A DNA stretch of 64,000 bases from an uncultured Planctomycetota bacterium (GTDB taxonomy: Bacteria > Planctomycetota > Planctomycetia > Isosphaerales > Isosphaeraceae), in contig CAWGMQ010000007.1 of the NCBI GenBank assembly GCA_963823665.1, positions 224,001 through 288,000 of the forward strand, in the 5' to 3' direction. Shown piece after piece: positions 46,243 to 63,490 of the stretch. The notes under the pieces were generated by a model, which saw nothing but the letters and a program-made list of their open reading frames with translations, had not been told where the DNA came from and searched no databases. Every line of letters starts with the position of its first letter. Positions within the stretch are counted from its first letter, which is position 1. The translations under genes were made by a program, and so were the position numbers.

Positions 46243-46403
46243 CAGCTCGTCTCCACGTTTGGTGATCGGCCCCCTTCACCCTGAAGTGTAATGTCACGGG
46301 CAGGGCCGGGCAGTCCCGCGGTTTTCGGGATGCAGGCTTTTCTTTCCGAGTATGCGATGGACGATCCCTGCGGCGCCGCTTCAAAATCGTACAGAGGACG
46401 GGC

Positions 46404-46454
46404 TGGCAACCAGAATCAGCGGCCGGCGGCTTCTGCTGGATTGCCTTGTTCGAG
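46404..46454 (-). repeat. attC-like site (degenerate, last of the array)
   Basis: Top strand CTCGAAC AAGGC AATCCAGC...GCTGATT CTG GTTGCCA. Confidence 0.55.
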
Positions 46455-46823
46455 GGCTTTCTTCGCTGGCGATCGCATCTTTTTCACCGTGTCCTGGACG
46501 AGCAAATCGTATCGTGCTCGATTCTCGTAGGTCGGCGAGTACTGCCCTTGCAAGTCTTTAAGCGAGCGCAGCACACGATCGCCGTTGCCCGCCTCGAGTT
46601 CGAGGATCGCCGCGTCGATCAGCTCTTTCGTCGCGCGACCAAACCACGCGTTGGAATTAAACCGCTCGAACGATCCGACCAGGGCGGCGACGCCGAAGGA
46701 GAACAGAATAGCCGCGATCCCCAGGCCAATGCGCAGCCTGCGTCGGTCCTGGAACTCCGAGGCGAGCCAGGCAATCGGTGCAGCGACGACCAGTAGTAAG
46801 AGCAATACCCCGAGAGCGCTCAT
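46416..46823 (-). CDS. Cassette ORF: hypothetical membrane protein
   Basis: Two TM helices, P TYENRARYD. Ends inside the attC. Confidence 0.7.
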   Translation of the reverse strand: MSALGVLLLLLVVAAPIAWLASEFQDRRRLRIGLGIAAILFSFGVAALVGSFERFNSNAWFGRATKELIDAAILELEAGNGDRVLRSLKDLQGQYSPTYENRARYDLLVQDTVKKMRSPAKKALEQGNPAEAAGR

Positions 46824-46883
46824 TGCTTCGTCTCTTTCGCCGAAAATCGTCGGCCCGCGCAGCGAATGCGCCTGATGCTTTCG

Positions 46884-47354
46884 TCAGTCCTCATCGCTAT
46901 CGGGCAGCCGCGTCATGAACGTGCTATTGGGATCGTCACTGTAACCCTCAATTGGCCCACACGGCTCAAAGCCAAAAGAGGCGTACAGCCGCCTCGCCGG
47001 TTCGAAATGAGCCTTTGAGCCAGTCTCCAAGCTGAGGCGGCGATACCCGCGACGTGTGGCCTCTGCGATGATGCGTTGCAGGATTGTCGACGCGATGCCC
47101 TTTCTCCGGTGTCGCTTCGACGTGCGCATGGATTTAATTTCGCCGTGCTCTTTGGTCAGCTCCTTGAGGGCGCCGCACCCGGCGAGCTCGTCGCCGATCC
47201 AAGCCGACCAGAACGTGATCTCGGACCTTCGCAGTGCTGCTGGATCAAGCGCGTGGACGCTCTCGGGTGGCGAGATGCTTCGCATTTCTCTCAGGTGCTC
47301 CTCGAGAAGAGCGACGACCGCTCCGTCTTCCAAGGTATCGATGCGAATCTCCAA
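46884..47354 (-). CDS. GNAT acetyltransferase
   Basis: SPPESVHALD, GCGALKEL, GEIKSMRT, RRKGIA, LSLETG, YASFGF. Confidence 0.9.
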   Translation of the reverse strand: MEIRIDTLEDGAVVALLEEHLREMRSISPPESVHALDPAALRRSEITFWSAWIGDELAGCGALKELTKEHGEIKSMRTSKRHRRKGIASTILQRIIAEATRRGYRRLSLETGSKAHFEPARRLYASFGFEPCGPIEGYSDDPNSTFMTRLPDSDED

Positions 47355-47379
47355 CCCTTGACTCCTTCGTCTGGTTACG

Positions 47380-47756
47380 TCACTTCCTCGATCTCGCCAT
47401 CCACGACTCGATAATTTCAAACCAGGTCCGAATCGTCGCCCGCCTCGGGAGCGGATACCGCTGGCATGCCTCCCGCCACGCCTCGGAGTCCGAGCGCCCA
47501 GCTTTTCGCAAATCAGCGGTCAGGTAAGCTCGCTCAGTAGCTGCATCATCGAATGGGTGGCGTGCCAATATCTTTTTATGATCGCGGCGTTGTCGATTGC
47601 GTAATGAAGAAGTCCAGCGCGATCGACTTCAACGTGCGGTCGTGCGCCGTCTTCCGAGTAGCCGAACGTAGGTAACTGGTGATCAGGCGCTCCGATCCGC
47701 GCTGCCAGTTCTCGAACTGTGTTCTCGATCTCAGGCAGTCCGGGCACTTTCGCCAC
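47380..47756 (-). pseudogene. Imm63-like immunity protein, internally deleted and frameshifted
   Basis: LPTFGYSEDGARPHVEVD..LHY, then jumps to ARHPFDD..AWREACQRYPLP in another frame. Confidence 0.6.
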
Positions 47757-47762
47757 GCCTGG

Positions 47763-48200
47763 TTAGCCCCGCCTTCGACGTAAATCTGCCGACTCCACGC
47801 CAACATCCAGGCTACCGCAAATGGCTCGCAACTGCGACTCCGGGATCAGTCCATCGTTGCAGCACCGCACGAGGAAGCGGTAAGTCGCCTCCGTGACCGA
47901 GTGACGGGCCTCACGAAGCGCCGCATGGGCGACGCGCCGCGGCGGGTCCGGCGGCCCGTGGATTTCCGGATCGCTCGGGAAAAACGTCTGCGTCCGATGC
48001 TCTGCCACGTACTCGTCCTGCGCCGCCTTGAGCCGGCGGAATCGCGACTCATAGCCGTCGATGATCTCCAAGGCATGCTGGGCTTGAGCGACCCAGAAGT
48101 CGAGGTTGGCCACGTGACCGGCGAGCTGATGCGTGTTGAGGGTAACGAAGCGCGACAACTGGTCGGCGACGATCTTGGCCACATTCTCCGAGAACGACAT
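47763..48200 (-). CDS. Cassette ORF: hypothetical protein
   Basis: GGAGG RBS, HQLAGHVANLDFW. Stop lies in GGCTAAC (R''-like). Confidence 0.7.
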   Translation of the reverse strand: MSFSENVAKIVADQLSRFVTLNTHQLAGHVANLDFWVAQAQHALEIIDGYESRFRRLKAAQDEYVAEHRTQTFFPSDPEIHGPPDPPRRVAHAALREARHSVTEATYRFLVRCCNDGLIPESQLRAICGSLDVGVESADLRRRRG

Positions 48201-48267
48201 GGTCCGCCCTCCCCGCCGGCTACGGCTAAGATCAACGGCGCGCAGCCAGGCGGAATCTTTCAGCCCG

Positions 48268-48606
48268 TCAAGAAATCGCTTGTTGATCTTGGTCAACTCT
48301 TGGAAGCTCTCCTGCCGCCAGCAGGTGCTGTCGATACGCGGCCACGATCTCTTCGACCGTCCGCGCCGCCCAGTGAGCGATCTCCTCATCAAACCGGCGC
48401 AAACGCGCGTCATTGTCATCGCGCCCGCAGGGGGGGACCCGAGCGCAGTCCGATTTGAGGGCACGAATCCTCGCCGCCCGAACCTCCTCGGCCGCCCGTT
48501 CGACGGCCTCTGGTTTCACGCCAGAGCTCAGGATACGCAGCAGGTGTTGCTCCCGACGTTTAAAGCCCTCGCGCTTCTTGCCGTACCACGGAATGTAGTT
48601 GGACAT
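48268..48606 (-). CDS. Cassette ORF: hypothetical protein
   Basis: MSNYIPWYGKKR..AAEEVRAARIR. Confidence 0.6.
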   Translation of the reverse strand: MSNYIPWYGKKREGFKRREQHLLRILSSGVKPEAVERAAEEVRAARIRALKSDCARVPPCGRDDNDARLRRFDEEIAHWAARTVEEIVAAYRQHLLAAGELPRVDQDQQAIS

Positions 48607-48667
48607 CCAGGTCGAGCCTCGCGCTCCCGCTCTGGTCGCGTTGGCTTTCACGAAGAAATTGCGCGGT

Positions 48668-48728
48668 CTCTCACGCCCCGAGAGCAGTGGCCAGCCGCGG
48701 GCCGACCCGCTGCGCTGCTATGCTAGAC
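48668..48728 (-). repeat. attC-like site (degenerate)
   Basis: GTCTAGC ATAGC AGCGCAGC GG...CC ACTGCTC TCGGGGC GTGAGAG. Confidence 0.45.
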
Positions 48729-48981
48729 ACATCGGCCGCGGCACGGGTTCAGTTCTGGTATAGCTCCGGACGCCCGCGCCCAGCGACCGGATGAACACCA
48801 AGCCGCCGAAGTCCCGATCTCGTGTCAGAAAGAACCTACCCTCAGCCTGCGCGACCCGCAGCAGCCCGGCGTCCTCGGAGCGCGACATGCCCCTCTCAGC
48901 GGCGGTGGCCACATCGAGGCCGAGATTACGCACGTACTGCACCTTGGCGGCGTACACGTATTGGTCCGCGAGGAGCCTCAC
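48718..48981 (-). pseudogene. DUF5615 PIN-like toxin, C-terminally truncated
   Basis: MRLLADQ..GLDV..SEDAGLL..AQAEGRFFLTRDRDFG, then homology is lost. Confidence 0.7.
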
Positions 48982-49208
48982 GCCGTCTCCGCCAAGCGGA
49001 TGTCCTCGAGCGCGATCAGGTCGATCGCATACAGGATGCAGGCCCGGACGTCCTCCGGAGCCAGGTCCGGGTAATAGTCGCGGCGAATCTCCGCGACGGG
49101 ATTCCCTTCTCGCACCAGTTCCAACACGCTCTGGACCGTGATCCGCGTGCCCGCGGCGCAGGGTTTGCCGAAGTGGATCCGAGGGCTGACTTCGATACGT
49201 TCGTGCAT
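48978..49208 (-). CDS. DUF433 antitoxin
   Basis: RIEVSPRIHFGKPCAAGTRITVQSVLEL..YPDLAPEDVRACILYA. GTGA overlap with the PIN gene. Confidence 0.9.
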   Translation of the reverse strand: MHERIEVSPRIHFGKPCAAGTRITVQSVLELVREGNPVAEIRRDYYPDLAPEDVRACILYAIDLIALEDIRLAETA

Positions 49209-49293
49209 GCTTAGACCTCCGGAAACATGGCCTGATCGAAGCACGGCGACCCGCCGGGAAGCAACCGAGGGATAGACTCGCCAACCCGGCAAA

Positions 49294-49352
49294 GCCGGGC
49301 TTCTTGAACATTGATTGGAGGTCCGGCTTCGCGGAATCCAATCCGTCGTGGT
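49294..49352. repeat. 59-bp intergenic repeat, copy 1
   Basis: 54/59 identical to 50954-51012. Confidence 0.8.
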
Positions 49353-49374
49353 CGGACCTCGCTCGGACGCCAAC

Positions 49375-49860
49375 TCAGTCTGGGCTAAATTTTACCCTGG
49401 TTACCCGGCCACGTTCAAAGTAGACGATCCCCCAGTCGGAATCGCCCGGTCCGGCCGACGCTGGGCGAAACACGAGGGTGCCCTGGATGACGAGTTCGCT
49501 CCCCTTCTGGGATGGATCGAGCGGATTGGCGGGCCAACCTGTCCCGCGCTGGTGGTGGGCCATGATCGTCTCGACATCGGCAGGGGTCATCCCGGCCCTG
49601 ACCTTGAAGAGATCGGCGAAGAAAGAGTCGCGGGTTGGCCACGGCACGAGATGGATCACGACCAGAGAAAGACCGATGGCAGCGAGAGTGACGACGGCTT
49701 TCCTCTGCTGGGCGAGCGGCCGCCAGCGTAGCAGGCCGACTGCGAAGAGGAGGAGGACGAGCAGATAAACCCACCCGGGCGGAGGATAGCCCACGAACAG
49801 TTCGTCGAGGACGAGGACAAATGCGGCCAACGAGGTGATAAAGAGGATCAGCGGTCGCAT
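49375..49860 (-). CDS. Cassette ORF: membrane protein
   Basis: ATG 4 nt after R' GTTAGAC. TM helices, VRAGMTPADVETIM..VKFSPD. Confidence 0.75.
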   Translation of the reverse strand: MRPLILFITSLAAFVLVLDELFVGYPPPGWVYLLVLLLFAVGLLRWRPLAQQRKAVVTLAAIGLSLVVIHLVPWPTRDSFFADLFKVRAGMTPADVETIMAHHQRGTGWPANPLDPSQKGSELVIQGTLVFRPASAGPGDSDWGIVYFERGRVTRVKFSPD

Positions 49861-49864
49861 TTCA

Positions 49865-49924
49865 GTCTAACGCCCAAATTCTGCGGCTCGCCGAAGGCGG
49901 GTCCGCTGGATCGCTTTGTTAGCC
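49865..49924 (-). repeat. attC site (canonical, 60 bp)
   Basis: GGCTAAC AAAGC GATCCAGC GGAC CCGCCTTCGGCGA GCC GCAGAAT TTGGGC GTTAGAC. Confidence 0.9.
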
Positions 49925-49984
49925 CAGCCGCAGTCACAAATTATCACAAGGCGCCGCAACGGGCCGGGCCGCTGTGGAGCCAGG

Positions 49985-50209
49985 TCAGGCGGCGCCCCCG
50001 TCAGCATCAGCCTCATCAGGCTCCTGATCGGGCGGATTGCTCAGCATGCTGATGATGTGCCGAGCCAGATGCTCCTTGATCTCGCGGTGTCGCGGGAGCG
50101 GCTGGGAGACCCCGGTCGTCTGGTTCCGGTACCAGTCGTGCCGCCCGCCGTGGCGGACCAAGATGCATCCGAACCCCTCAATCGTGCGGACCAGATCAAC
50201 CCGCTTCAC
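49985..50209 (-). CDS. hicA: HicA-family toxin
   Basis: MKRVDLVRTIEGFGCILVRHGGRHDWYRN..QPLPRHREI. Confidence 0.88.
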   Translation of the reverse strand: MKRVDLVRTIEGFGCILVRHGGRHDWYRNQTTGVSQPLPRHREIKEHLARHIISMLSNPPDQEPDEADADGGAA

Positions 50210-50397
50210 GGGACCACCAACTCGTCAACCTTGCGGATTCCCGGCAACTCGCCGCTCGTCAGGTCCCGGTACAAGTCGATGAGATGATCCTTCAGATCGT
50301 CCAGGGAGTCGCCCTGGGTCCAGTAGTCGGGATAATCGAGCAAGTATCCGAGGAAGGCATCCCCGTCCCGCCAGTGCACAAACTTGATGGTTTGCAT
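50206..50397 (-). CDS. hicB: HicB-family antitoxin
   Basis: FLGYLLDYPDYWTQGDSLDDLKDHL. GTGA overlap with hicA and upstream TACAAT. Confidence 0.85.
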   Translation of the reverse strand: MQTIKFVHWRDGDAFLGYLLDYPDYWTQGDSLDDLKDHLIDLYRDLTSGELPGIRKVDELVVP

Positions 50398-50473
50398 AGA
50401 GAGGCTCCGCGGCCGGCGCATCACGGCAGGATTGTACCTCGGGGCGTCGCCCGCGGGCAACCGGCCCGTGGTC

Positions 50474-50563
50474 GTCGAACAACCAAGCTCAGGGCCCACC
50501 GGTAAGCAGGTCCGAGCGGCAATCCGGCCGGTGCCAACCGGGCCAACCTGATCCGCGTCAGGG
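50474..50563 (-). repeat. attC-like site (degenerate)
   Basis: CCCTGAC (contains the stop codon)...GGCCCTGAGC TTGGTT GTTCGAC. Confidence 0.45.
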
Positions 50564-50803
50564 ATTGCCATTGCCCCCGGTGGGCGCGGACACCGGGCCA
50601 TTTACCTCGACCTGGTTGACGAGGAGCAGGTCGACGATGCTGAACTTCTCGTCATCGTGGTAGACGATGACCGTCCGGCCGGACGGTGAGTGCGATAGGA
50701 ACTCGCTGTGGGGGACATGCAGGGCCCGCCCATCGGCCATGTGGATCGTGAAGGGCCGGAAGGGCCGTGCCTGATCGACATTGCGAAGCTGCTCGATGGT
50801 CAT
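50558..50803 (-). CDS. Small hypothetical protein with its own TGnTACAAT promoter
   Basis: MTIEQLR..ARPFRPFTIHMADGR..VPHSEF. Confidence 0.75.
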   Translation of the reverse strand: MTIEQLRNVDQARPFRPFTIHMADGRALHVPHSEFLSHSPSGRTVIVYHDDEKFSIVDLLLVNQVEVNGPVSAPTGGNGNP

Positions 50804-50953
50804 CGGAGTCCTAGACGGTAGTGCAGATCGCCGCAGCGCGAGCGACGAGGTGATTGTACCACAGGGGGTCTGCCCCATGCGACTCGGCCTGACCGATCGT
50901 TGAGCGATCCTGCCGCCGAGCGTTTCCGAAGCTCAGGGCTCTGCGTGCTCATC

Positions 50954-51012
50954 GCCGGGCTTCTTGAACATCGATTGGAGGTCCGGCTCCGCGGACTCCA
51001 ATCCATCATGGT
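50954..51012. repeat. 59-bp intergenic repeat, copy 2 (hairpin GATTGGAG-GTCC...GGAC-TCCAATC)
   Basis: Matches 49294-49352. Confidence 0.8.
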
Positions 51013-51022
51013 TCGCCGGCGC

Positions 51023-51107
51023 TCATGGCAGTGCCAACGCGGCCTTCAGACAGTCGTCGAGTTTCTGTCCCATGGCCGGCGACGAGGACGACGTCACCCC
51101 GGTTCAT
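51023..51107 (-). pseudogene. PemK/MazF-like toxin remnant (central deletion)
   Basis: MNRGDVVLV joined out of frame to MGQKLDDCLKAALALP*. ATGA overlap with the upstream gene. Confidence 0.7.
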
Positions 51108-51355
51108 GGCTCATCCGGGAGATCGTCGTACTCGTCCATGTCCTCCCAACCCGCCTGCTTGCCTGCTTCCCACGCCAAAGCTTGGAGCTCCTCCCCCGTC
51201 CATGGGCTGTCGTCGTACTCATCGTGCTTGAGCCGCTCGTATTCGTCGAGCCGGAGAAATACGAAAGTCTCCCCGGTCCGGGGGCTCACTAGACGGAGCG
51301 AGGCGGTCTCGCAATCCTCGATCGCCTGCCATTGCTGCTCGTTCAGTTCGATCAT
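51104..51355 (-). CDS. Putative antitoxin (acidic C-terminus)
   Basis: MIELNEQQWQAI..PRTGETFV..YERL..GWEDMDEYDD, coupled to the MazF remnant. Confidence 0.65.
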   Translation of the reverse strand: MIELNEQQWQAIEDCETASLRLVSPRTGETFVFLRLDEYERLKHDEYDDSPWTGEELQALAWEAGKQAGWEDMDEYDDLPDEP

Positions 51356-51401
51356 TGGGGGGCTTCTCCATACCCGCACCGTACCGCCGCCGCGCTCCGC
51401 C

Positions 51402-51461
51402 GTCCATCGCCGAGGCTCAGCGGTCCGCCGCAGGCGGGGCCGCTGGATCGCCACGTTGGCC
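51402..51461 (-). repeat. attC site (R' degenerate: GATGGAC)
   Basis: GGCCAAC GTGGC GATCCAGC GGCCCCGCCTGCGGCGGACC GCTGAGC CTCGGC GATGGAC. Confidence 0.75.
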
Positions 51462-51515
51462 GGGCCGCCATGGCCTTCATCGCGCCCTGGACCGCTGTTG
51501 GGTGCATCACGTTTG

Positions 51516-51657
51516 TTAGCCCCATTTCTCAACGTACTTCGTGATAACATCAGCCAGGCTCGGACGGCAGAGGGCCGCATATTCCTGAGCCATCCTCCCA
51601 AGCACAGACCCACGAACTCCATCCTCTGGTGGGAGCGGTGGTCGGATCGAACCGCAT
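51516..51657 (-). pseudogene. Internally deleted copy of the 56648-57490 gene
   Basis: Matches 56648-56760 and 57461-57490 but lacks the ~700 bp between them. Confidence 0.8.
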
Positions 51658-51685
51658 AGCACACGGCCCTTCCATGTCAGGCGAG

Positions 51686-52033
51686 TTAGCCGTCAGCGTG
51701 GTCGCCGCGATGCCGGGCCTTGGGCCAACGAATCCGGTCCGGCGCGACACTCGACGGGGGCCAGAGGCGACGGGGCCTCAGCTCAAATGTGAAGAAGTAG
51801 TTGTCGAACGAGACGTCCGTCGGGCCGGCGGCCCAGCCCCGAATACGCTTCTCGACCGCGACCCATCGGCGCCGCCGCCTCAGGATGCTCGGCTTCTCGT
51901 AGCGGTCCAATCGCCTCTTATGCCATTTGGCGTGGGAGATCGGGTGGCCGCCCTCCTCGTGGAGCAGCCTGCGCAACCGCTTGAGGCCATCGGCGAGCGA
52001 TTCACCGCCTGCGATCTCAACTCTGACACCCAT
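51686..52033 (-). CDS. Ribosomal protein bS21-like paralog, copy 1
   Basis: MGVRVEIAGGESLADGLKRLRRLL...DRYEKPSILRRRRR plus a C-terminal extension. Stop lies in GGCTAAC. Confidence 0.6.
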   Translation of the reverse strand: MGVRVEIAGGESLADGLKRLRRLLHEEGGHPISHAKWHKRRLDRYEKPSILRRRRRWVAVEKRIRGWAAGPTDVSFDNYFFTFELRPRRLWPPSSVAPDRIRWPKARHRGDHADG

Positions 52034-52206
52034 GTCGCGCGTCTTGACGGCCGACGCGAAGCCGTGGAAACGGATGACTGAACCCCCCGGGGATGAGCAG
52101 CCTGACTCGAAATCGCCCGAAGTCTTGATTGGCTCTCCATCCGTGGACACGCAAGCTTACCACCCGTGTCCGGCAAGGCCAAGCCGGCTTTCTCCAGCGA
52201 TCGCCG

Positions 52207-52306
52207 GCCTGACGGCTGGCGGCTCAGCGGCCCGGGCCACCAAAGTGAGTTCGTGCGCATCGACGAGTGCTGCGGCGGTTCGGGTCCGCTGCGGCGCCGG
52301 TTAGCC
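52207..52306 (-). repeat. attC-like site (100 bp)
   Basis: GGCTAAC CGGC GCCGCAGC GGACCCG...CGGGCC GCTGAGC CGCCAGCC GTCAGGC. Confidence 0.75.
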
Positions 52307-52597
52307 GTCGGCGCGCTTCTGATCCGCGACCCACGTCGCAGCGTCATGATAGATCCGCGCCATCGGACAAGGCAGTCGGTCCTCCGCCCTGAGCCATGTC
52401 AGGTGGACCTGCGCCACTCGCCCGGATCCATCCTCGATCGCGAACAGCACGTCATCGCGGTCAGGGCGGCGGCCGATGGCGCGCAGTGGCAAGCCATAGA
52501 GGCAATGGCCCGGCTACAACTCCCGACGCAGCTCCGCCTCGACCGCCTCGACGTGAGACGGCAGATCGAAGGGTTGCCACGGCCCGATCCATTCCAC
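52301..52597 (-). pseudogene. Cassette ORF with in-frame TAG (52514-52516)
   Basis: MEWIGPW..EAELRREL*PGHCLYG..DDVLF..VAQVHLTW. Stop lies in R''. Confidence 0.7.
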
Positions 52598-52612
52598 AGC
52601 CAGTCCCCCGCC

Positions 52613-52673
52613 ATGTAACGTCCAAGATCAGCGGCCCGTCGGCAGGCGGGTCCGCTGCAACCGAATCTTAGGC
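52613..52673 (-). repeat. attC site
   Basis: GCCTAAG ATTCG GTTGCAGC GGAC CCGCCTGCCGACGG GCC GCTGATC TTGGAC GTTACAT. Confidence 0.85.
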
Positions 52674-52878
52674 TCGGCTCGGCCGGGTCCGGAGGATTTC
52701 ACGAGAAGTCTCTTCGGACGCCGGCGAGTAACATTGTAGATCGCCGTGGAGGTCGTCAGGGCCATCGCTGATCCAGGCACGGCCGATGATGCGAGGGGTC
52801 GGGTCGGGCTGCCGGACCGTTTGTCCGGCGAGAATCGCGACCCTCTTTCAGCCCTCAGTGCGACGCAACTTGATCAGG
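52674..52878 (-). pseudogene. 3' remnants of duplicates of the 54749-55081 and 55164-55679 genes
   Basis: 52674-52760 matches ~54755-54840, and 52832-52879 matches ~55149-55195. Confidence 0.7.
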
Positions 52879-54018
52879 TCAGACTTTCGCTGTCGCGAAC
52901 TTCACCACACCTTTTCCGCCGTCTGCCTCGCCGTCGAAGATCGTGAAATAGCCATTCATCAGCGGCAGGCCCAGGATCGCCAACCCCGGCTGCCCCGGCG
53001 TGATCGCGGGCGCAGCGAAACCAGCCTGCTGCGTATTTGCCTGCCAGTAATTGGACGGTGGCACGTCCAGTTTCACGTCGCCGGCATCGCCCTGCAGCAC
53101 GAACGTGATCGTGGGCCACGTGTCGAGCTGCAGATCCGACATCGAAACGAGCTGGCCCTGGTGGATCGCATCAGAAAGTAGCGTCTTCTGCGCGGCCGGG
53201 AACTTAGAGAGGATAGCCGCGAGCAACGGCGGACTCAAATTGAGGCTGTTTGTCCCGCTGTCGATGATCGAATTCGACGGCATGCCTTGCGGGCCCTGTC
53301 TGCGGGCCGCTATCGGAGAAGCGGAGCCGACGATCACGGCCTTGAGGTTCGTGTTGTACCACTGGTCCGACAGCACCTTCACGGATTGGAACGTGCCCGT
53401 ATACAGATCCGTGCTCTCTTCCCCGCCGCCAACGACCATCCAACCGTTGTTGAGCGGGTCGTTCGCGTCACCGGCGCCCACGTGGACGAACGAGCGGCGC
53501 GTGTAGAAGGAAATCCGGTCCGAAACGACGCCCGCGTCGGCGAGCTGCGTCAAGTACGGAACGAGGTCAGTTCTCGTGCCGGTGCGTACCTGCACAGAGG
53601 TGTAATGCTGCTGCGACGTGTCGTCGGGCATCTGGAACGCGTCGTCGAGCGGTGCGTAGGCCAGGCCGAGGATGCCGTCGGTTTCACCGAACATGTCCGA
53701 TGTCGCGTCGTAGGCGACCGCGACATTACCGCCTTGTAGCGTGGCGGCTGCACTGCCAGTGCCAGCGGTTATGGTCGATTTGATGACCGCGCCGGTCCAA
53801 CTGCTGCCGTCGCCGTAGGAATCCGTCTGCGCGAGCTTGGTGGACTGGTCGCCGCTGGCGAAGTCCGGCGTGTACTTCGTCCCGTCGAGGGCCAGCGCGC
53901 TGCTGCCGGTGTCGAGGAGGACGTTCATCGGCTTCTTGGCCGACCCGACAAGAATTACGCCCGTGTAATCACCCTTGGCGAAAACGTTCGTGATCGGGAC
54001 GCGAATGACGGTTGCCAT
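52879..54018 (-). CDS. Pepsin-like (A1) bilobed aspartic protease
   Basis: VLLDTGSS, flap SYGDGS, DGILGLAY, IIDSGT, ILGLPLMNGYFTIFD. Confidence 0.88.
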   Translation of the reverse strand: MATVIRVPITNVFAKGDYTGVILVGSAKKPMNVLLDTGSSALALDGTKYTPDFASGDQSTKLAQTDSYGDGSSWTGAVIKSTITAGTGSAAATLQGGNVAVAYDATSDMFGETDGILGLAYAPLDDAFQMPDDTSQQHYTSVQVRTGTRTDLVPYLTQLADAGVVSDRISFYTRRSFVHVGAGDANDPLNNGWMVVGGGEESTDLYTGTFQSVKVLSDQWYNTNLKAVIVGSASPIAARRQGPQGMPSNSIIDSGTNSLNLSPPLLAAILSKFPAAQKTLLSDAIHQGQLVSMSDLQLDTWPTITFVLQGDAGDVKLDVPPSNYWQANTQQAGFAAPAITPGQPGLAILGLPLMNGYFTIFDGEADGGKGVVKFATAKV

Positions 54019-54129
54019 GGCGAAATCTCCTTGGGGATTGTTGCGGTCAGCTCGCCTCGGTTGTACGGCGTGACGTATGATCCATGCATACGGTTGTTGA
54101 TCCACGTGAATATCAGGAATGAGGCGAGC

Positions 54130-54368
54130 AACCCGAAGGCGCGCGACCTGGCCCACTCGATTTCCTGATCGATCCATTTGTCGTCATCCTCTCGCGTTAC
54201 GCCATTCCACAACGCCTTTGCGAAGCTGAGGATCGCGAGCTGCGGAATCCCCTCAGCCAATTGCGAGCGTGCCCATGATTCAGGATCGGGAGCCCCCGCT
54301 CAGCGGAAAACTTCCGTCAGCGAACGGAGTTCGTCAGGGTTCACATCTTCGTCGCGTTGAAATGACAT
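54130..54368 (-). pseudogene. Cassette ORF with in-frame TGA (54300-54302), 3' truncated
   Basis: LTEVFR*AGAPDPESWARSQLAEGIPQLA..WIDQEI. Confidence 0.6.
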
Positions 54369-54381
54369 GTTTTGTCTCGTG

Positions 54382-54480
54382 GGCTAACGATTAAGCTCAG
54401 CGCCCCCGTGCGCGAGCGCGAGCTTGGATGATAACGCGACGCGCCGTGGCGGGCCGGCTCCGCTGAATCGCCGGTCAGGC
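54382..54480 (-). repeat. attC-like site (99 bp)
   Basis: GCCTGAC CGGC GATTCAGC G...C GCTGAGC TTAATC GTTAGCC. Confidence 0.75.
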
Positions 54481-54607
54481 GCGTCCTGGCGCTTCGTCCT
54501 GGGCCCCTACTCGGTGGTGCCTTGGGTGGACCCGGCGGCCTCACGGGCGGGGTTGATGGCTGTGGGACTCGTCCCGTGTCGGTCATCTCCCCTCCGATTC
54601 CTGAGCC

Positions 54608-54673
54608 ACCTAACACCCCAGATCAGCGGCCCGCCGTAGGGCGGGTCCGCCGCACAGCATCGCGTTGTTAGCC
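54608..54673 (-). repeat. attC site
   Basis: GGCTAAC AACGC...GCGGC GGAC CCGCCCTACGGCGG GCC GCTGATC TGGGGT GTTAGGT. Confidence 0.85.
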
Positions 54674-54696
54674 ACTGCGCCGTCTACTTCGAGCAT

Positions 54697-54754
54697 GGCT
54701 AACGGCGAGGTTCAGCGGCTCGCGGAGAGGGTCCGCTACAATCGAATCTTAGTC
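54697..54754 (-). repeat. attC site
   Basis: GACTAAG ATTCG ATTGTAGC GGAC CCTCTCCGCGA GCC GCTGAAC CTCGCC GTTAGCC. Confidence 0.85.
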
Positions 54755-55081
54755 TCGGCTCGCCCGGCTCCGGAGGATCTCACGAGAGGTCTCTTCGGAC
54801 GCCGGCACGTAACACTGTAGATCGCCGCGGAGGTCGTCAATGAATAGACGACCACAGTCTCGACACTGGTACATTAATCGGGAAGTCCGGCGGATGGTCT
54901 CCCGAGCCAGATTGCAGGCCGCCGATCGCTCGAGCCGACCGGACACGAGCGCGTCGATGACCTCTTCATCGAGGGAATCGTAGATGGCGAACCAGTCTTG
55001 GTCGGGGATCAGGTGCCCCTTGTGCGGCAAGTCGTCGGTCTGATCTACGATGCTCGCACCGCAAGGGCAACCGATCTTCAC
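54749..55081 (-). CDS. Cassette ORF: CPCG...CRDCG zinc-binding hypothetical protein
   Basis: GGAGG RBS, KIGCPCGASIVDQTDDLPHKG..YQCRDCGRL. Stop lies in R''. Confidence 0.8.
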   Translation of the reverse strand: MKIGCPCGASIVDQTDDLPHKGHLIPDQDWFAIYDSLDEEVIDALVSGRLERSAACNLARETIRRTSRLMYQCRDCGRLFIDDLRGDLQCYVPASEETSREILRSRASRD

Positions 55082-55100
55082 ATAAACCTCCGCACTTGCT

Positions 55101-55169
55101 GCCTGACGCCAGAGATCGGCGGCCCGCCGCATTGCCTCATTCGGCGGGAATCGCGACCCGCCTTCAGTC
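55101..55169 (-). repeat. attC-like site (only the right arm clear)
   Basis: ...GGCGG GCC GCCGATC TCTGGC GTCAGGC. Confidence 0.45.
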
Positions 55170-55679
55170 CTCGGTGCGACGCAACTCGATCAGGTATTCG
55201 ACACTCTTTCCGTCTTGGGCTGGGCGGGCAACGAGGGGTGCGGTTGACGTCGCGGCCGAAAAGTCTTCATATCCTTCGGCGGTGACCAGGAGGGTCGTGT
55301 CTGGTAGGTCGACCCGGCGAGTGTCACGCACCAGGGAGCGGTGACCAGCACCCTGGATCTGGCCGCCGAATCGACGGATGTGCCCCGGGGCGGACGTCTT
55401 TATATCGTAGACGAGGCCGCCCTGTACGAGCTTGACCCTGGCACCAACGACGGGCTGGCCGGTTGCTGCGTCCAGGACTTTGTAAATGACCGGGGTGCCC
55501 GCGTCCGGCCCCGACCAAGGCACCGCGGTCCATCGGTCAATAGCCGTGTAGGCCGTGAGCAAGGCGGCGATGAGGATTGGGAGGGCCATGAGAGTTCGCA
55601 GCCTGAAGTTGAGTCGGCCCAGAGCCCGCCGGCTTGGCGGTGCCCGCTCCAGCGGTGCCAATGGTCGCTCGCTATTCAT
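55164..55679 (-). CDS. Cassette ORF: membrane-anchored protein with a carboxypeptidase-regulatory-like beta domain
   Basis: FRLRTLM, TM helix, VLDAATGQPVVGARV, VTAEGY. Confidence 0.7.
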   Translation of the reverse strand: MNSERPLAPLERAPPSRRALGRLNFRLRTLMALPILIAALLTAYTAIDRWTAVPWSGPDAGTPVIYKVLDAATGQPVVGARVKLVQGGLVYDIKTSAPGHIRRFGGQIQGAGHRSLVRDTRRVDLPDTTLLVTAEGYEDFSAATSTAPLVARPAQDGKSVEYLIELRRTED

Positions 55680-55740
55680 GGTCGCTCCTGGCGGTGGCCG
55701 CGGAGATTGTCACCCGAAGGACCAGCGCGTCCACACGGCT

Positions 55741-55798
55741 GCCCAACGTGACGGTTCAGAGGTCCGCCGCGGGGCGGGTGCGCTTCATCTCGTCAGGT
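55741..55798 (-). repeat. attC-like site fused into the hicB copy
   Basis: ACCTGAC GAG ATGAAGC GCACCCGCCCCGCGGCGGACC TCTGAAC CGTCAC GTTGGGC. Confidence 0.55.
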
Positions 55799-55930
55799 CC
55801 CGATACAGGTCGATGAGATGATCCTTCAGATCGTTCAGGGAGTCGCCCTGGGTCCAGTAGTCGGGGTAATCGAGCAGGTATCCGAGGAAGGCATCCCCGT
55901 TTTGCCAGTGCACGAACTTGATGGTCTGTA
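55785..55930 (-). pseudogene. hicB: Second hicB copy (ATG>ATA, 3' truncated, hicA absent)
   Basis: Near-identical to 50257-50450, including the upstream TACAAT region. Ends DLTR*. Confidence 0.8.
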
Positions 55931-56040
55931 TAGCGAGGCTCCGTAGCCGGCGCATCACGGATGAATTGTAGCCCGGGGCGGCGCCATCCGGCAACCGAGA
56001 GAGCCCATCGCCACCCAATCCGTCGCGTTGCTGCTCTTTC

Positions 56041-56095
56041 CGTCGACGTCAGGCGGCCTGCCGCCAGTCGGGACCGCTGCATCGCCATCTTAGAC
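56041..56095 (-). repeat. attC-like site (right arm degenerate)
   Basis: GTCTAAG ATGGC GATGCAGC GGTCCCG...GGCCGCCTGAC. Stop of the upstream gene lies in R''. Confidence 0.65.
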
Positions 56096-56527
56096 GAGCT
56101 TGTCGCGAACCTTCGCCGATTCCTCCTGCAGGGCATGTCGGGCTCCGAGGATGAAGCCCTCGTCAACCCCGCCCGAATCGCACCTCGGGCACAGCTCGAC
56201 GGTGATCCAGGAGATCTCGTCGCCACCCAGGAAGTTTGGGGCGTGCTTGATCTCAGTGATCGCCCCACTCGGGTCTCGCACTCGCCACGTTCCGGAGGAA
56301 ACCAAATCGTCGAACCTGTCGAATTCCGCCGCGTCGTGATCCTGGTCCGAAGCAGCCCGAGCGGTGAAGTCCTTGCAGAATTCGATGAACTCACGGATCC
56401 TGCGCTCAAGCGGCACGCCGGGCACGGAGAAAGCCGGGCGGAAGGTACCGAACCAGGTCCCCTGGTGCTCGAATACCTCGGTGATATCACCGACAACGAT
56501 AGGGCCGTGATCGAGTTGGAGATCCAT
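56090..56527 (-). CDS. Cassette ORF: hypothetical protein
   Basis: GGAGG RBS after R', HQGTWFGTF..RIREFIEFC. Confidence 0.7.
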   Translation of the reverse strand: MDLQLDHGPIVVGDITEVFEHQGTWFGTFRPAFSVPGVPLERRIREFIEFCKDFTARAASDQDHDAAEFDRFDDLVSSGTWRVRDPSGAITEIKHAPNFLGGDEISWITVELCPRCDSGGVDEGFILGARHALQEESAKVRDKLV

Positions 56528-56549
56528 CAATCCACCTCCGACGCCCGCC

Positions 56550-56610
56550 GTTTAACCACAAAGATCAACGGCCCGCCGCCGGTCGGGTCCGCTGCGTCGC
56601 CATGTTAGCC
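56550..56610 (-). repeat. attC site (canonical)
   Basis: GGCTAAC ATGGC GACGCAGC GGAC CCGACCGGCGGCGG GCC GTTGATC TTTGTG GTTAAAC. Confidence 0.9.
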
Positions 56611-56647
56611 CACGCCACTCCATGATTTCATCGCCTCGTTAAACGAA

Positions 56648-57490
56648 TTAGCCCCATTTCTCAACGTACTTCGCGATTACATCAGCCAGGCTGGGACGGC
56701 CGAGGGCCGCATATTCCTGAGCCATCCTCCCGAGCAAAGACCCACGAACTCCTTCGTCTGTCCAGTGATGCCAGTAGGCTTCACGAAGGTACGCCAAAGC
56801 GGTGCCATGGAAGCCCCGTCTGCTCGCTTGCTCCGCTGCAGTGACGTAGTGTTGGCAAGGCGTACGATAACGATCAGTCGAAGGAATAGCAGTGTCCTCA
56901 AACTGGTTCCTTGGGGCCAAGACTCCGATACCATCCATGGTCTGCAAATGATGCCAGCCATCTGGAATCACCGGCATAATGTCAACTCCGTTGCCGTCCG
57001 GACCGTAGCGGGCCGTGTTCTGGCCTGACTCCGGGCCGACGCCAAGGCGCTCGCTGAGCAACCTAATGCCGCGGACGGACTCCTCGTCCAACTCCGCGTA
57101 ATCCGGAGCACTCGACACGAGGTTGCTGAAGCCGTCGGTTGTATCGGCTCCGAGCAGGAAGACGCCGCGTGCGTCCATCGGACACAGCTGACCCATGGGG
57201 TAGTCCGACTGGTCCAACTCCGGTGCATGAACTGCATAACCGTAGTGCACCCCATCGACTCCCATAGTGCCCACGGGGAAGAACTCCGCCGGAGTCTGGT
57301 GGTACCTGAGCTCGGCGGCGCCGAAGCGAAAGCCGCCGAATGCATCGTCGAAGAAACAAGATATGTTTAGCTTGCTCTTAGATTCGTGCCACGCGATCAG
57401 AACTAACTCAACGAAGGCCGGAGGGACGGCAAAACCGAACGCGTCCGAGAGAGACTGCTTGGTGGGAGCGACTGTCGGATCGAACCGCAT
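56648..57490 (-). CDS. HPF1/DUF2228-like (or SUKH-related) protein
   Basis: AFGFAVP, RYHQTPAEFF..GVDGVHYGY, TMDGIGV, GFHGTAL, YAALGRP.LA. Confidence 0.5.
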   Translation of the reverse strand: MRFDPTVAPTKQSLSDAFGFAVPPAFVELVLIAWHESKSKLNISCFFDDAFGGFRFGAAELRYHQTPAEFFPVGTMGVDGVHYGYAVHAPELDQSDYPMGQLCPMDARGVFLLGADTTDGFSNLVSSAPDYAELDEESVRGIRLLSERLGVGPESGQNTARYGPDGNGVDIMPVIPDGWHHLQTMDGIGVLAPRNQFEDTAIPSTDRYRTPCQHYVTAAEQASRRGFHGTALAYLREAYWHHWTDEGVRGSLLGRMAQEYAALGRPSLADVIAKYVEKWG

Positions 57491-57518
57491 AGCACACGGC
57501 CCTTCCATGTTAGGGGAA

Positions 57519-57866
57519 TTAGCCGTCGGCATGGTCGCCCCGATGCCGGACCTTGGGCGAACGAATCCGGTCCGGCGCGACACTCGACGGGGGCCAGAGC
57601 CGACGGGGCCTCAGCTCAAATGTGAAGAAGTAGTTGTCGAACGAGAGGTCCCGCGGGCCGGCGGCCCAGCCCCGGATACGCTTCTCGACCGCGACCCATC
57701 GGCGCCGCCGCCTCAGGATGCTCGGCTTCTCGTAGCGGTCCGATCGCCTCTTATGCCATTTGGCGTGGGAGATCGGGTGGCCGCCCTCCTCGTGGAGCAG
57801 GATGCGCAACCGTTTGAGGCCGTCGGCGAGCGATTCACCGTCTGCGATCTCGACCCTGACACCCAT
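57519..57866 (-). CDS. Ribosomal protein bS21-like paralog, copy 2
   Basis: Same 115-aa length as copy 1 and highly similar. ESLADGLKRLR..YEKPSILRRRRR. Confidence 0.6.
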   Translation of the reverse strand: MGVRVEIADGESLADGLKRLRILLHEEGGHPISHAKWHKRRSDRYEKPSILRRRRRWVAVEKRIRGWAAGPRDLSFDNYFFTFELRPRRLWPPSSVAPDRIRSPKVRHRGDHADG

Positions 57867-58040
57867 GTCGCGCGTCTTGACGGCCGACGCGAAGCCGTGG
57901 AAACGGATGACTGAACCGCCGGCGGGATGAGCAGCGTGACTCGAAATCCTTCGAGGTCTTGATTGGCTCTCCAGCTCTGGACACAGAAGCTTACCATCCC
58001 TGCCCGGCAAGACCAAGCCGGCTTCCTCATGCGATCGCCG

Positions 58041-58098
58041 GCCCAACAGCTGATGGCTCAGCGGCGCCGCGTGTGTCCGCTGCAGCGGCGGGCTCGGC
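58041..58098 (-). repeat. attC-like site
   Basis: GCCGAGC CCGCC GCTGCAGC GGACAC...GCC GCTGAGC CATCAGCT GTTGGGC. Confidence 0.7.
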
Positions 58099-58116
58099 GA
58101 CTGGCGTGAACCGGAA

Positions 58117-58521
58117 CTACTTGACGACGGCCGTTTCCCAGCCGTCGTATTCGCCCCCCAGAGACCGCGCCATCTCGTCGAAACCTGCTCCAATCGCCTC
58201 GATCGCCGCGAGATCAGGCACCATCGACTTGGTGCCGAGGCATAACCAATTCGGGCCCTGGGCCGCTCGGTCGACTCTCGCACCAAAGCCCTTCGCTCGA
58301 ATCTTATCGGCAATGTTCAGCGCTGCCTCCCGAGTGGGCAGGTATATGAAGAACTCAATGGAATGTGGCTTTGACAGGTCACTTCCAGCCTCTCTGAGTT
58401 GCGCGAGAACGAGTGCGTCGCCGCTTTTCGGCTCTGGGGATGCCCGATAACCCTTGATAGCGTAAATGACGGCGATCAGGATGAGGAAGGCAAGCAAGAA
58501 CGGCCAACGTGACCTCTGCAC
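58117..58521 (-). CDS. RraB-like (ribonuclease E inhibitor domain) protein
   Basis: VLAQLREAGSDLSKPHSIEFFIY..GGEYDGWET. Confidence 0.75.
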   Translation of the reverse strand: MQRSRWPFLLAFLILIAVIYAIKGYRASPEPKSGDALVLAQLREAGSDLSKPHSIEFFIYLPTREAALNIADKIRAKGFGARVDRAAQGPNWLCLGTKSMVPDLAAIEAIGAGFDEMARSLGGEYDGWETAVVK

Positions 58522-58545
58522 GGCTCGACCTCCGGACGCTGCATT

Positions 58546-58935
58546 TCACTTCAATCGCACTAACCCACCTTTTCGACGGATCAGGTTCTTGTAGTCCCAC
58601 TGGACGTCCCGCGCCTCGGCCAACCAGTGCCCAAGCTGCTCCGTGTCAACTTGATCGACAGCAGTGTATCGAGCTTCAGCGGCTTTGAAAGTCCCTTCCT
58701 TTTTCAGTCCCTTCTCCTTGAAAGACTGGCCACTCCAGAAGAGTAAGCGGACACAGTTCTTGAGCTTGCTGTACCCAACGACAGGATTCCCCTCGAGAAA
58801 CCATACAGGATGGGCGTGCCAAATCTTGTTCTCCGCCTCGGGAAGACCGTGATCAATCTGTTCGGCAAGCAGTCTACAAATCGCTCGATCGCTCAGCGCC
58901 TGTGACTCATTGTACGCCGTCGTGTCCGAGTGCAT
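58546..58935 (-). CDS. DUF1801 (YdhG-like) protein
   Basis: LPEAENKIWHAHPVWFLEGNPVVGYSK..LLFWSGQSF. Confidence 0.85.
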   Translation of the reverse strand: MHSDTTAYNESQALSDRAICRLLAEQIDHGLPEAENKIWHAHPVWFLEGNPVVGYSKLKNCVRLLFWSGQSFKEKGLKKEGTFKAAEARYTAVDQVDTEQLGHWLAEARDVQWDYKNLIRRKGGLVRLK

Positions 58936-59378
58936 GCGATCTCCTCATGCTCGAGTAGGGAGCAGGTTCTCCGCGTGGACGCTCGCCATTTGTTGCGGTG
59001 CGCGGGGCAACTGCATGGCGTTGTTCAAGTATGCCGCTTGCGCGGCAAACCAATCAGTCTCCGCTCGCGTGAGGTGAGAACGCGCGATCGACCGAATTCT
59101 CGTCGATTCAGAGCGCCCTAGCAATGCCCGCGAGAAAAGGGCCGAGAAACAGTCCGCGCTTGGGAACAAGGATCCCGCCCTCCCAGCGCGATCGCTCCGC
59201 GGTTCATGGGGGAGATAGAAGCGGACCCAGTGTATTGGCGGAAGCGAGTTGGGAAGCGCACTCTCCCTCGAGAGTCTCTGAAGGGCGTTGCCTAAGAGGC
59301 GAAAGTTTGACTCGAAGCTCGCCATCATTCAAGCGTCTCTCGCCGCATGACCGCGAAAACGATCGGCTCCGGTCTCGC

Positions 59379-59847: not shown

Positions 59848-60398
59848 TCAAGGCAAGCTTTCGCCCAGCCGCCGCGCCAGCCACGCCCGGGCAAACCGCC
59901 ATTCGCGCTTCAATGTACTTTCCGACTCGCCAACCACATGTGCCGTTTCCTCGATGCTCAACCCCGTGTAATAACGAAGCTCGACGATCTCCGCTACCCG
60001 CGCGTGCTCCGCGTGAAGCTGCTGGATCGCCTCATCCAGCGCGAGCAGATCGCTGGAGGGTGCTTCGACCCAGACCAGACCTTCGGCCAGCTCAATGCGA
60101 TGAGACTTCCCCCCGCGCTTCAAACTGGCCCTGCTCCGTGCATGTTCGATCACGATTTCACGCATTGCCTGCGCCGCGGCGCCGAAGAAATGGCGCCGAT
60201 TGTCCCAGCCAGGATCCTCGCCCCGGACCAGCCGTAGATACGCCTCGTGGACCAGCGTCGTCGCCCCGAGTGCCTGCCCGGCGCCACCCCAGTCGTGAGC
60301 GCTCGGGCCAGCCGCCGCAACTCCGCGTAAAGAACCGGCAACAATTCCGCCGCCGAGTGCTTTGCTGCGGCTGGTATTTCATCCTCTCGCTGCGTCAT
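59848..60398 (-). pseudogene. ECF sigma factor, TIGR02999-like, frameshifted
   Basis: AAELLPVLYAELRRLA / TTLVHEAYLRL..HFFGAAAQAMREI..ELRYYTGLS..REWRFARAWL. Confidence 0.8.
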
Positions 60399-63296: not shown

Positions 63297-63490
63297 GAAA
63301 CCGGGACGAGGGGAAACTGGGACGCGGAGGAGGGGGAAACTGGGACGCGATTAATATTGTGAACCCAAAACGGTCCGCGTCCCGGTTTCACTCCCCCGCG
63401 TCCCGGTTTCACTCCCCCCGGTTTCACTCCCGGCGTCCCGGTTTCACTCCCGGCGTCCCGGTTTCACTCTCCGTCCCGGTTTCACTCTCC
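63297..63490. repeat. Opposed tandem repeats GAAACYGGGACG x3 and (CGT)CCCGGTTTCACTC x6
   Basis: Seen directly, in the intergenic region between convergent genes. Confidence 0.85.

Follow-up and report, generated by a model that had tools for sequence, protein, structure and literature searches.

The DNA analysed here is a 64-kb stretch (the window; G000:C7:224001-288000) of a 16.46-Mb assembly, G000, that comprises 12 contigs and is 91.9% complete. Between positions 46401 and 59135 it carries an array of small genes separated by imperfect inverted repeats, and every Pfam-supported gene in 46416-58935 is on the minus strand. A preliminary description, made from the letters of the sequence, had read the repeats as about 15 attC sites, the recombination sites of integron integrases (IntI), in a Planctomycete-like chromosome with no visible intI gene. 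The host was placed correctly, as the TIM-barrel gene next to the array finds its best named matches in Isosphaeraceae and further Planctomycetota. The window was compared with the genomes of relatives, among them G001, a congener of G000 that is 84% complete.

attC sites in the window

In order to avoid circularity, a covariance model (R1) was built from 34 attC sites that adjoin intI genes of same-family relatives, none of them taken from the window. These source sites came from a structural scan next to the relatives' intI genes, and the clean sites were found with the core proposed in the preliminary description. The stem of the R1 alignment covaries, with 48 two-sided changes against 15 ± 3 in shuffles and above all 500 shuffles, a count that is inflated by the relatedness of the sequences. 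When the 64 kb were searched with filters off and E ≤ 5 listed, R1 gave 28 matches. Eleven plus-strand matches, the strand that corresponds to the attC bottom strand, have E < 0.02, and every one of them lies within 46401-58098. Two minus-strand matches at this level are palindromic echoes of two of the eleven. Weaker plus-strand matches were found inside the array at 55741, 48668 and 56042 (E 0.55-1.2), and the best match beyond it reached E 0.22. About eight further remnants, half-sites and collapsed sites, were recognized with stem profiles that lack the R boxes and by eye. The identity of the repeats as attC sites is thus confirmed by an independent model, and the figure of about 15 is fair provided that the weaker sites and remnants are counted. 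A strict structural scan of the window yielded 2 sites only, because the sites have decayed.

Genome-wide, R1 matched at least 26 places in G000, of which 12 belong to a second array, on contig C3, 7 to the window array and 2 to C11, with 5 isolated ones, and at least 32 in G001; these counts are lower bounds, as 150 of 18188 candidates were scored and two window sites were missed. The scattering of repeats in either orientation that would have spoken against attC was not observed, since 21 of the 26 matches fall in three single-strand clusters. The core, which had been taken to indicate a resident family of sites, was found in identical form flanking intI genes that score above the TIGR02249 cut-off in same-family genomes.

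The box geometry originally proposed, 7-5-8...7-6-7 in which L'' and GGAC contain unpaired bases, proved right. Ten window sites could be aligned and checked box by box, and 52 sites beside intI, a reference set that partly overlaps the R1 training set, served for the family comparison. In the window, L'' and L' form on average 6.1 of 7 pairs with one extrahelical base in L''; a second extrahelical T, 6 bp away, is present in 8/10 sites. Central spacers of 5 and 6 nt are kept in 7/10, two sites having an 8-nt and two a 4-nt spacer. In the family sites the bottom-strand extrahelical L'' base is C in 46/52, and the distal one, six pairs away, is T in 46/52. The AAC...GTT cores are intact in 44 of the 52 sites beside intI and in 3 of the 10 window sites, and one window site (56550) passes all box checks.

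Some details of the preliminary description did not hold. The start of R'' was given as RYY, which fails in three of the four boxes presented as the best examples (GGCTAAC, GGCTAAC, GACTAAG). Gene stops were said to fall inside R''; this is so at 4/13 sites, counting open reading frames of at least 45 aa (9% expected at random), and is not so at most of the others, which follow gene remnants. At the 47763 stop R'' is present, but just R'' and the R' tail remain of that attC. For the 51686 stop, the true R'' probably lies four codons further on, given that homologues extend three residues more. Folding of the bottom strands, which had been suggested as a check, gave z of about -3 in 2/17 window stretches, and folding alone hardly distinguishes shuffles from sites; z ≤ -3.0 was reached by 9/9 hand-picked sites of relatives.

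Integrase search and history of the locus

TIGR02249 matches at E ≤ 1e-40 were found in 13 of 36 same-family genomes, and matches above the cut-off in 21 of the 61 genomes searched. The 18 matches in G000 all stay below the cut-off, and model positions 182-236 are skipped by the best of them. A family IntI query had the same outcome, with no IntI in G000 or G001. No intI remnant was found by tblastn with 19 family IntI proteins in the window and 20 kb on each side (the best match, E 0.049 and 29% over 76 aa, was judged to be chance), and none of the 20 PF00589 matches in G000 lies near any of its arrays. When five regions next to intI in relatives were compared by blastn, no match at E ≤ 0.05 was obtained here that could mark attI or the cassette promoter Pc, a weak result as attI is poorly conserved. 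The lack of intI at the upstream end, as first described, was therefore borne out locally, in the G000 assembly and in G001. It had been left open whether the array is orphaned or served in trans; the former fits, and the latter finds no support because no intI was found in G000 or G001 and the sites are eroded.

The window array is one of several. A second large one (G000:C3:1666154-1676557) has at least 14 sites and an orthologous array on G001 C9, and a third, small one lies at G000 C11:652276-653079. The C3 array contains further copies of window cassettes, at 81-87% identity. G001 has an array between the same flanks as that of the window; common to both are the protease gene at 87%, a small gene at 89% and a fragment, and the rest is different. 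In six relatives the two flanking genes are direct neighbours and the site is empty; in G021 and G033 they are separated by unrelated cargo that contains neither attC nor intI. No intI was found at this locus in the 6 stretches of relatives examined. The empty or unrelated locus in relatives, together with the orthologous G001 array, indicates that the array was founded in the ancestor of the genus. A change of cassette order after G000 and G001 diverged was weighed as well and is not shown, as duplication and differential loss account for the order. It is not needed because 54518-54594 still has the tail of the 50558-50878 gene, in G001 order.

Upstream, a 5.5-kb insert that is absent from G001 is flanked by a fragment (59141-59255) and a full copy (L065:710-1193) of one gene pair, which we take to be toxin-antitoxin-like. 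This rearrangement cuts the upstream end of the window array. G021 carries three more arrays, and at the head of every one an intI fragment lies in the customary divergent position (L133:995-1644, L135:14489-14689 and L136:3909-4103).

Site decay, element ends and cassette genes

Retention of both cores was compared across arrays with profiles that ignore the R boxes. Both are intact in 31/35 sites beside intI, in 49/62 sites of the three G021 arrays headed by intI fragments, in 14/14 of a G026 array, in 5/8 of two further G021 stretches, in 0/7 on G021 C34 and in 3/41 sites of G000 and G001 together; two G025 stretches hold no paired site. Parts of the array, among them 51474-51629 and 56582-56950, are matched exactly by short-read contigs from three soil runs, whose cover is patchy and one of which is possibly the source sample. 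The only indels of these contigs are at 60279 and 60956, outside the array. The decay is therefore not an assembly artefact where it can be checked. At 60279 and 60956 the short-read contigs have one extra base each, which affects an ECF sigma gene and the start of a 737-aa gene; these frame breaks look like assembly errors. Behind the 737-aa gene, a 23-nt repeat occurs in six near-tandem copies (63373-63489).

A recurrent variant affects the core triplets. In G000 and G001, R'' reads GAC at 15/54 sites and R' reads GTC at 17/54, as compared to 1/52 each beside intI. Cassettes that start with GTC do not tend to end with GAC (13 pairs, Fisher p = 1), and the frequency of both rises with stem decay (Spearman rho -0.69, over arrays that are not independent). 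Exact patterns stand at GAC:AAC = 6:60 in G021, 0:43 in G026 and 7:9 in G000 and G001, so the variant also occurs in other genera. Alignments of G000 with G001 and of paralogues show TTA>TCA to be the commonest T>C context (23/139, against 6/186 for CTA and a mean of 8.9%), a figure to which stop codons may contribute. Duplicate copies of one R' read GTCAGGC and GTTGGGC. According to Frumerie 2010, recombination by IntI1 falls from 2.2e-3 to 6e-6 when a cleavage site is mismatched; a GTC change that is paired does little harm if one partner carries it but lowers recombination 150-fold if both do. By analogy, the unpaired GTC and GAC changes would probably disable sites.

The boundaries of duplicated cassettes differ with age. 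Older paralogue pairs, namely 48222-47762 with its C3 counterpart, 85% identical, and three copies of the hicB-like gene, at 81-89%, start at G|TT and have different upstream spacers. In the two pairs at 92%, one of them in C3 and the other 58065-57460 with 52231-51627, homology starts within the upstream attC; the two members of the window pair have an abnormal 8-nt spacer in common. This fits early IntI action followed by recombination between repeats. At 47762 the hairpin is lost and the C3 paralogue retains it, as expected from slippage deletion of hairpins, which Loot et al. mention.

Two repeats of another kind lie in the array (49294-49357 and 50886-51017). They were first taken as a long attC type; they have no such fold and proved to be an element end. 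The same repeat caps a tyrosine recombinase and an IS91-type transposase in G010 and G017, and a truncated version in G021 (PF00589, PF14319). The window repeats are the right ends of such an IS91-like recombinase/Y2 element; its recombinase and Y2 genes are absent upstream of the conserved end in the window, which holds ends only. The G021 copy with full structure begins behind the L'' and spacer of an attC and extends to an R'' box, in the orientation opposite to that of the cassettes, so that the attC is split at R''. The G010 copy sits in an array between R'- and R''-like boxes, and no attC halves accompany the G017 copy. Among 29 element-end loci in 14 genomes, several of which are related copies, the 7-mer that follows is within one mismatch of GTTAGGC at 15 (background 0.4%) and may belong to the element itself rather than to attC. 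An attC half lies on the opposite strand within 1.5 kb of 12/29 ends (background 3/100). The element seems to aim at cassette sites, and the same composite of element end and attC stands behind different genes in three arrays. The literature listings searched hold no description of a recombinase/Y2 IS91-like element at attC.

Table 1 Features of the window array and of related element loci. Bits and E values of sites refer to model R1.
Feature	Position	Strand	Remarks
Whole cassette array (genes and attC top strand)	46401..59135	-	upstream end cut near 59135
attC, decayed; R'' GCCGAGC, 8-nt L'-R' spacer	58041..58098	-	31.0 bits, E 1.5e-5
attC, sole site passing all box checks	56550..56610	-	41.3 bits
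attC, left arm intact, right arm decayed; 146-aa gene stops in R''	56036..56095	-	12.1 bits, E 1.2
attC right arm fused to truncated hicB-like gene	55741..55798	-	13.4 bits, E 0.55
attC, terminal stem-loop deleted	55101..55145	-	25.3 bits, E 4.5e-4
attC, R'' core AAG; 127-aa gene stops in R''	54697..54754	-	37.3 bits
attC, 5-nt insertion near L''; preceded by gene-less 23-bp stretch	54608..54673	-	39.3 bits
attC, long type (99 bp), R'' core GAC	54382..54480	-	30.1 bits
attC, R'' core AAG, stem best preserved	52613..52673	-	44.1 bits (model start 52610); fold z -3.0
attC, long type (100 bp), 8-nt spacer, R' core GTC	52207..52306	-	32.0 bits
attC, R' core GAT	51402..51461	-	46.1 bits
attC, cores intact, 4/7 L-box pairs	49865..49924	-	49.8 bits
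attC, degenerate	48667..48728	-	12.5 bits, E 0.96
Last attC, mainly right arm left	46401..46454	-	19.7 bits, E 0.013
attC remnant; GNAT gene stop in R''	46833..46889	-	by eye, no model match
Collapsed attC, R'' joined to R' tail	47755..47766	-	C3 paralogue retains entire site
attC right arm	48217..48241	-	homology with C3 paralogue begins at its G|T crossover
attC left arm behind hicA	49955..49990	-	by eye
attC right-arm remnant	50474..50496	-	
Composite: attC R'-L' arm, IS91-like right end, R''-like box	50886..51017	+	right end ~50953-51010; box 51011-51017
Second IS91-like right-end remnant	49294..49357	+	next to degenerate R''-like box
Further loci of the IS91-like element	L134:9630-11060; L192:1810-4320		
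DUF1801 gene	58546..58935	-	Pfam E 6.8e-9
RraB-family gene (PF06877)	58117..58521	-	Pfam E 5.9e-21
bS21-like gene, copy 1	57519..57866	-	Pfam S21, below cut-off
bS21-like gene, copy 2	51686..52033	-	606-bp duplicated block, 92% DNA identity
~283-aa gene	56648..57499	-	duplicate at 51516-51660 with ~700 bp lost internally
Pepsin-family aspartyl protease gene	52879..54018	-	Pfam; orthologue in G001 array, 87% DNA identity
hicB-like/hicA cassette	49985..50460	-	HicA by Pfam, hicB by position only; truncated copy 55785-55994
DUF433/truncated DUF5615, toxin-antitoxin-type pair	48718..49214	-	Pfam
GNAT acetyltransferase gene	46884..47357	-	Pfam E 2.3e-17
135-aa gene	46416..46823	-	also in G000 C3 array and G001 C9 array (80-81%)

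The genes between the sites are listed in Table 1; none of 22 proteins was matched by PADLOC, and none of 23 scored above an NCBIfam cut-off. The hicB-like/hicA cassette has a promoter-like site of its own starting at G|TTGCC; the -35-like hexamer of this site overlaps the R' box at the crossover point (50431-50460 and 55965-55994). Cassette genes with promoter-like sites of their own, such as the toxin-antitoxin cassettes, may still be expressed. The protease has beta-secretases as its best PDB matches (E ~1e-9) and is joined to the 3' end of another cassette gene; it is kept in both congeners. The bS21-like cassette genes are distinct from the genome's own bS21 on C4 and carry a C-terminal extension. 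They have 18 homologues (61-94%), whose terminal residues fit a stop inside R'', which suggests that these may be cassettes too. Collection scans recovered no DNA locus for these homologues, and no paired attC halves surround bS21-like genes at three relatives' loci.

Interpretation and comparison with known systems

The best explanation, which we hold with considerable confidence, is that the array is a sedentary chromosomal integron cassette array without an integrase, a clustered set of attC sites that has no integrase (CALIN), and that it is eroding. Such clusters are recognized by two or more attC sites that share a strand and lie no further than 4 kb from each other, and here eleven sites with E < 0.02 follow one another with a largest gap of 3.4 kb, co-oriented small genes lie between the sites and no intI is nearby. 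The marks of a complete integron, an intI with the integron-specific insertion as well as attI and Pc, were not found. We propose that, in an ancestor shared by G000 and G001, a family IntI once inserted cassettes by recombining the folded bottom strands of attC sites at G|TT, and that it would have left copies of some of them in two or more of the genome's arrays. IS91-like elements would have inserted at some R'' boxes, and intI and attI would have been deleted afterwards. Later change would be mainly integrase-free: point mutation, fastest at TTA>TCA and striking the core triplets, slippage that deletes hairpins, and duplications that arise when repeats recombine.

Several observations weigh against this explanation. 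The intI gene may be unassembled, given the completeness of the two assemblies. Because no intI remnant (in the window and 20 kb on each side) and no attI marks the locus, the loss of intI in place would be a reading borrowed from the G021 pattern. The fold energies of most window sites do not exceed those of shuffles, and the boundary evidence amounts to about six pairs. Moreover, of 18 sites beside intI that were not used in training, 11 have both cores and 4 pass all checks.

Instead, the array could still be active and depend on an IntI acting in trans, one that is missing from the assembly, resides on a visiting element or is expressed elsewhere. In the incomplete assembly such a gene could be missed, the cassettes common to several arrays would record past trans activity, and site 56550 passes all box checks; moreover, CALINs are described as mobilisable in trans by Cury 2016 (PMC4889954) and in a Xanthomonas preprint (10.1101/2025.06.18.660453). 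We regard this as improbable: no IntI was found in either congener, excision needs two good sites and one in ten passes all checks, the IntI1 rates of Frumerie 2010 for non-complementary cleavage sites are low, and the youngest duplicates lack G|TT boundaries.

Another explanation is that the array never had its own intI, and was seeded by a cassette inserted at an attG site and then grown at attC, or was split off another integron. In this case it is still a decaying CALIN and its origin is different. The lack of any intI remnant or attI-like sequence agrees with this, as do the genus-specific locus, which is an insertion hotspot, and the five isolated R1 matches in G000, and insertion at attG has been demonstrated by Loot et al. 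That route has been proposed for single cassettes or small clusters, however, and more than eleven sites are present here; three large G021 arrays have intI fragments head-to-head upstream, and the later rearrangement at the upstream end could have removed intI. We therefore give this origin little credence.

A second functional core class, GTC/GAC, used by a changed or non-IntI recombinase such as that of the IS91-like elements, is very doubtful. The enrichment of the two triplets over sites beside intI and their complementary positions speak for it, as does the finding that the top TIGR02249 matches in G000 are IS91-type recombinases. It was rejected as a new site class, since the triplets do not pair within cassettes, track stem decay, occur in other genera, arise in the most mutable context and differ between copies of one R', and no PF00589 match lies near a G000 array. 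Finally, repetitive extragenic palindromic (REP)-like elements or terminators unrelated to integrons, which the five isolated matches and the few stops in R'' might suggest, can be practically dismissed: the same family flanks intI in relatives, the clusters are strictly co-oriented, Rfam gave 0 matches and the main stems have no T tails.

It is also conceivable, if quite unlikely, that the IS91-like elements at R'' substitute for the lost intI, either through action of their own tyrosine recombinase on attC or through rolling-circle carriage of cassettes. An integron parasite would then act as a replacement integrase, and the composite found behind different genes in three arrays would be explained.

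IS1111-attC elements are a further group of attC-associated mobile elements. Group IIC introns (PMC7923331) and ISCR28, which attC sites adjoin (bioRxiv 10.1101/2025.01.22.634252), resemble the IS91-like element in being found at attC sites. The latter differs in that it pairs a tyrosine recombinase with an IS91-type transposase; in two full copies it lies opposite to the cassettes, and the window holds right ends only. As in the classical attC sites of mobile integrons (Nivina et al. 2016, PMC5027507), the family sites have AAC/GTT cores, 5- and 6-nt central spacers and two extrahelical bases 6 bp apart with a distal T. They differ in the bottom-strand L'' base, which is C in most family sites and "usually a G" according to that paper. 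The comparison also drew on further integron literature (PMC5371416, PMC2811028 and 10.1101/2022.09.11.507474).

Integrons have been found in Planctomycetes (Cury 2016), and a Planctomycetes attC model was built by Ghaly 2021 (PMC8352920); our family assignment was made with R1, from relatives' sites. The intI-bearing arrays of G006, G010, G014, G021 and G026 share with the window array the attC family, the box geometry and the presence of short (56-61 bp) and long (90-102 bp) attC types, and the window array differs in having no intI or attI. In Xanthomonas, arrays likewise lie at conserved chromosomal loci of related species after integrase activity was lost, and fixed CALIN loci after intI inactivation are described in the preprint cited above (bioRxiv). 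The phylum and attC family are different there, and the window has no surviving intI pseudogene.

As a CALIN, the window array is of an ordinary, known kind. CALINs are common: Cury 2016 counted 279, of which 6.6% have more than 10 sites. The present array shares with them the co-oriented attC sites, the cassette-type genes and the lack of a nearby intI, and it is larger than most, heavily eroded and part of a genome in which several arrays and no intI were found. What makes it valuable is that it closes a decay series in a single family, which leads from intact intI with clean sites through intI fragments with nearly clean sites to broken sites without intI. It shows that loss of the integrase is followed by predictable change of the core triplets (GTT>GTC and AAC>GAC), which could serve to date arrays and will lead attC finders to undercount old ones. 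The array also extends the known integron systems by Planctomycete examples in which an IS91-like element is found at R'' boxes of attC, and by a cassette-borne bS21-like gene.

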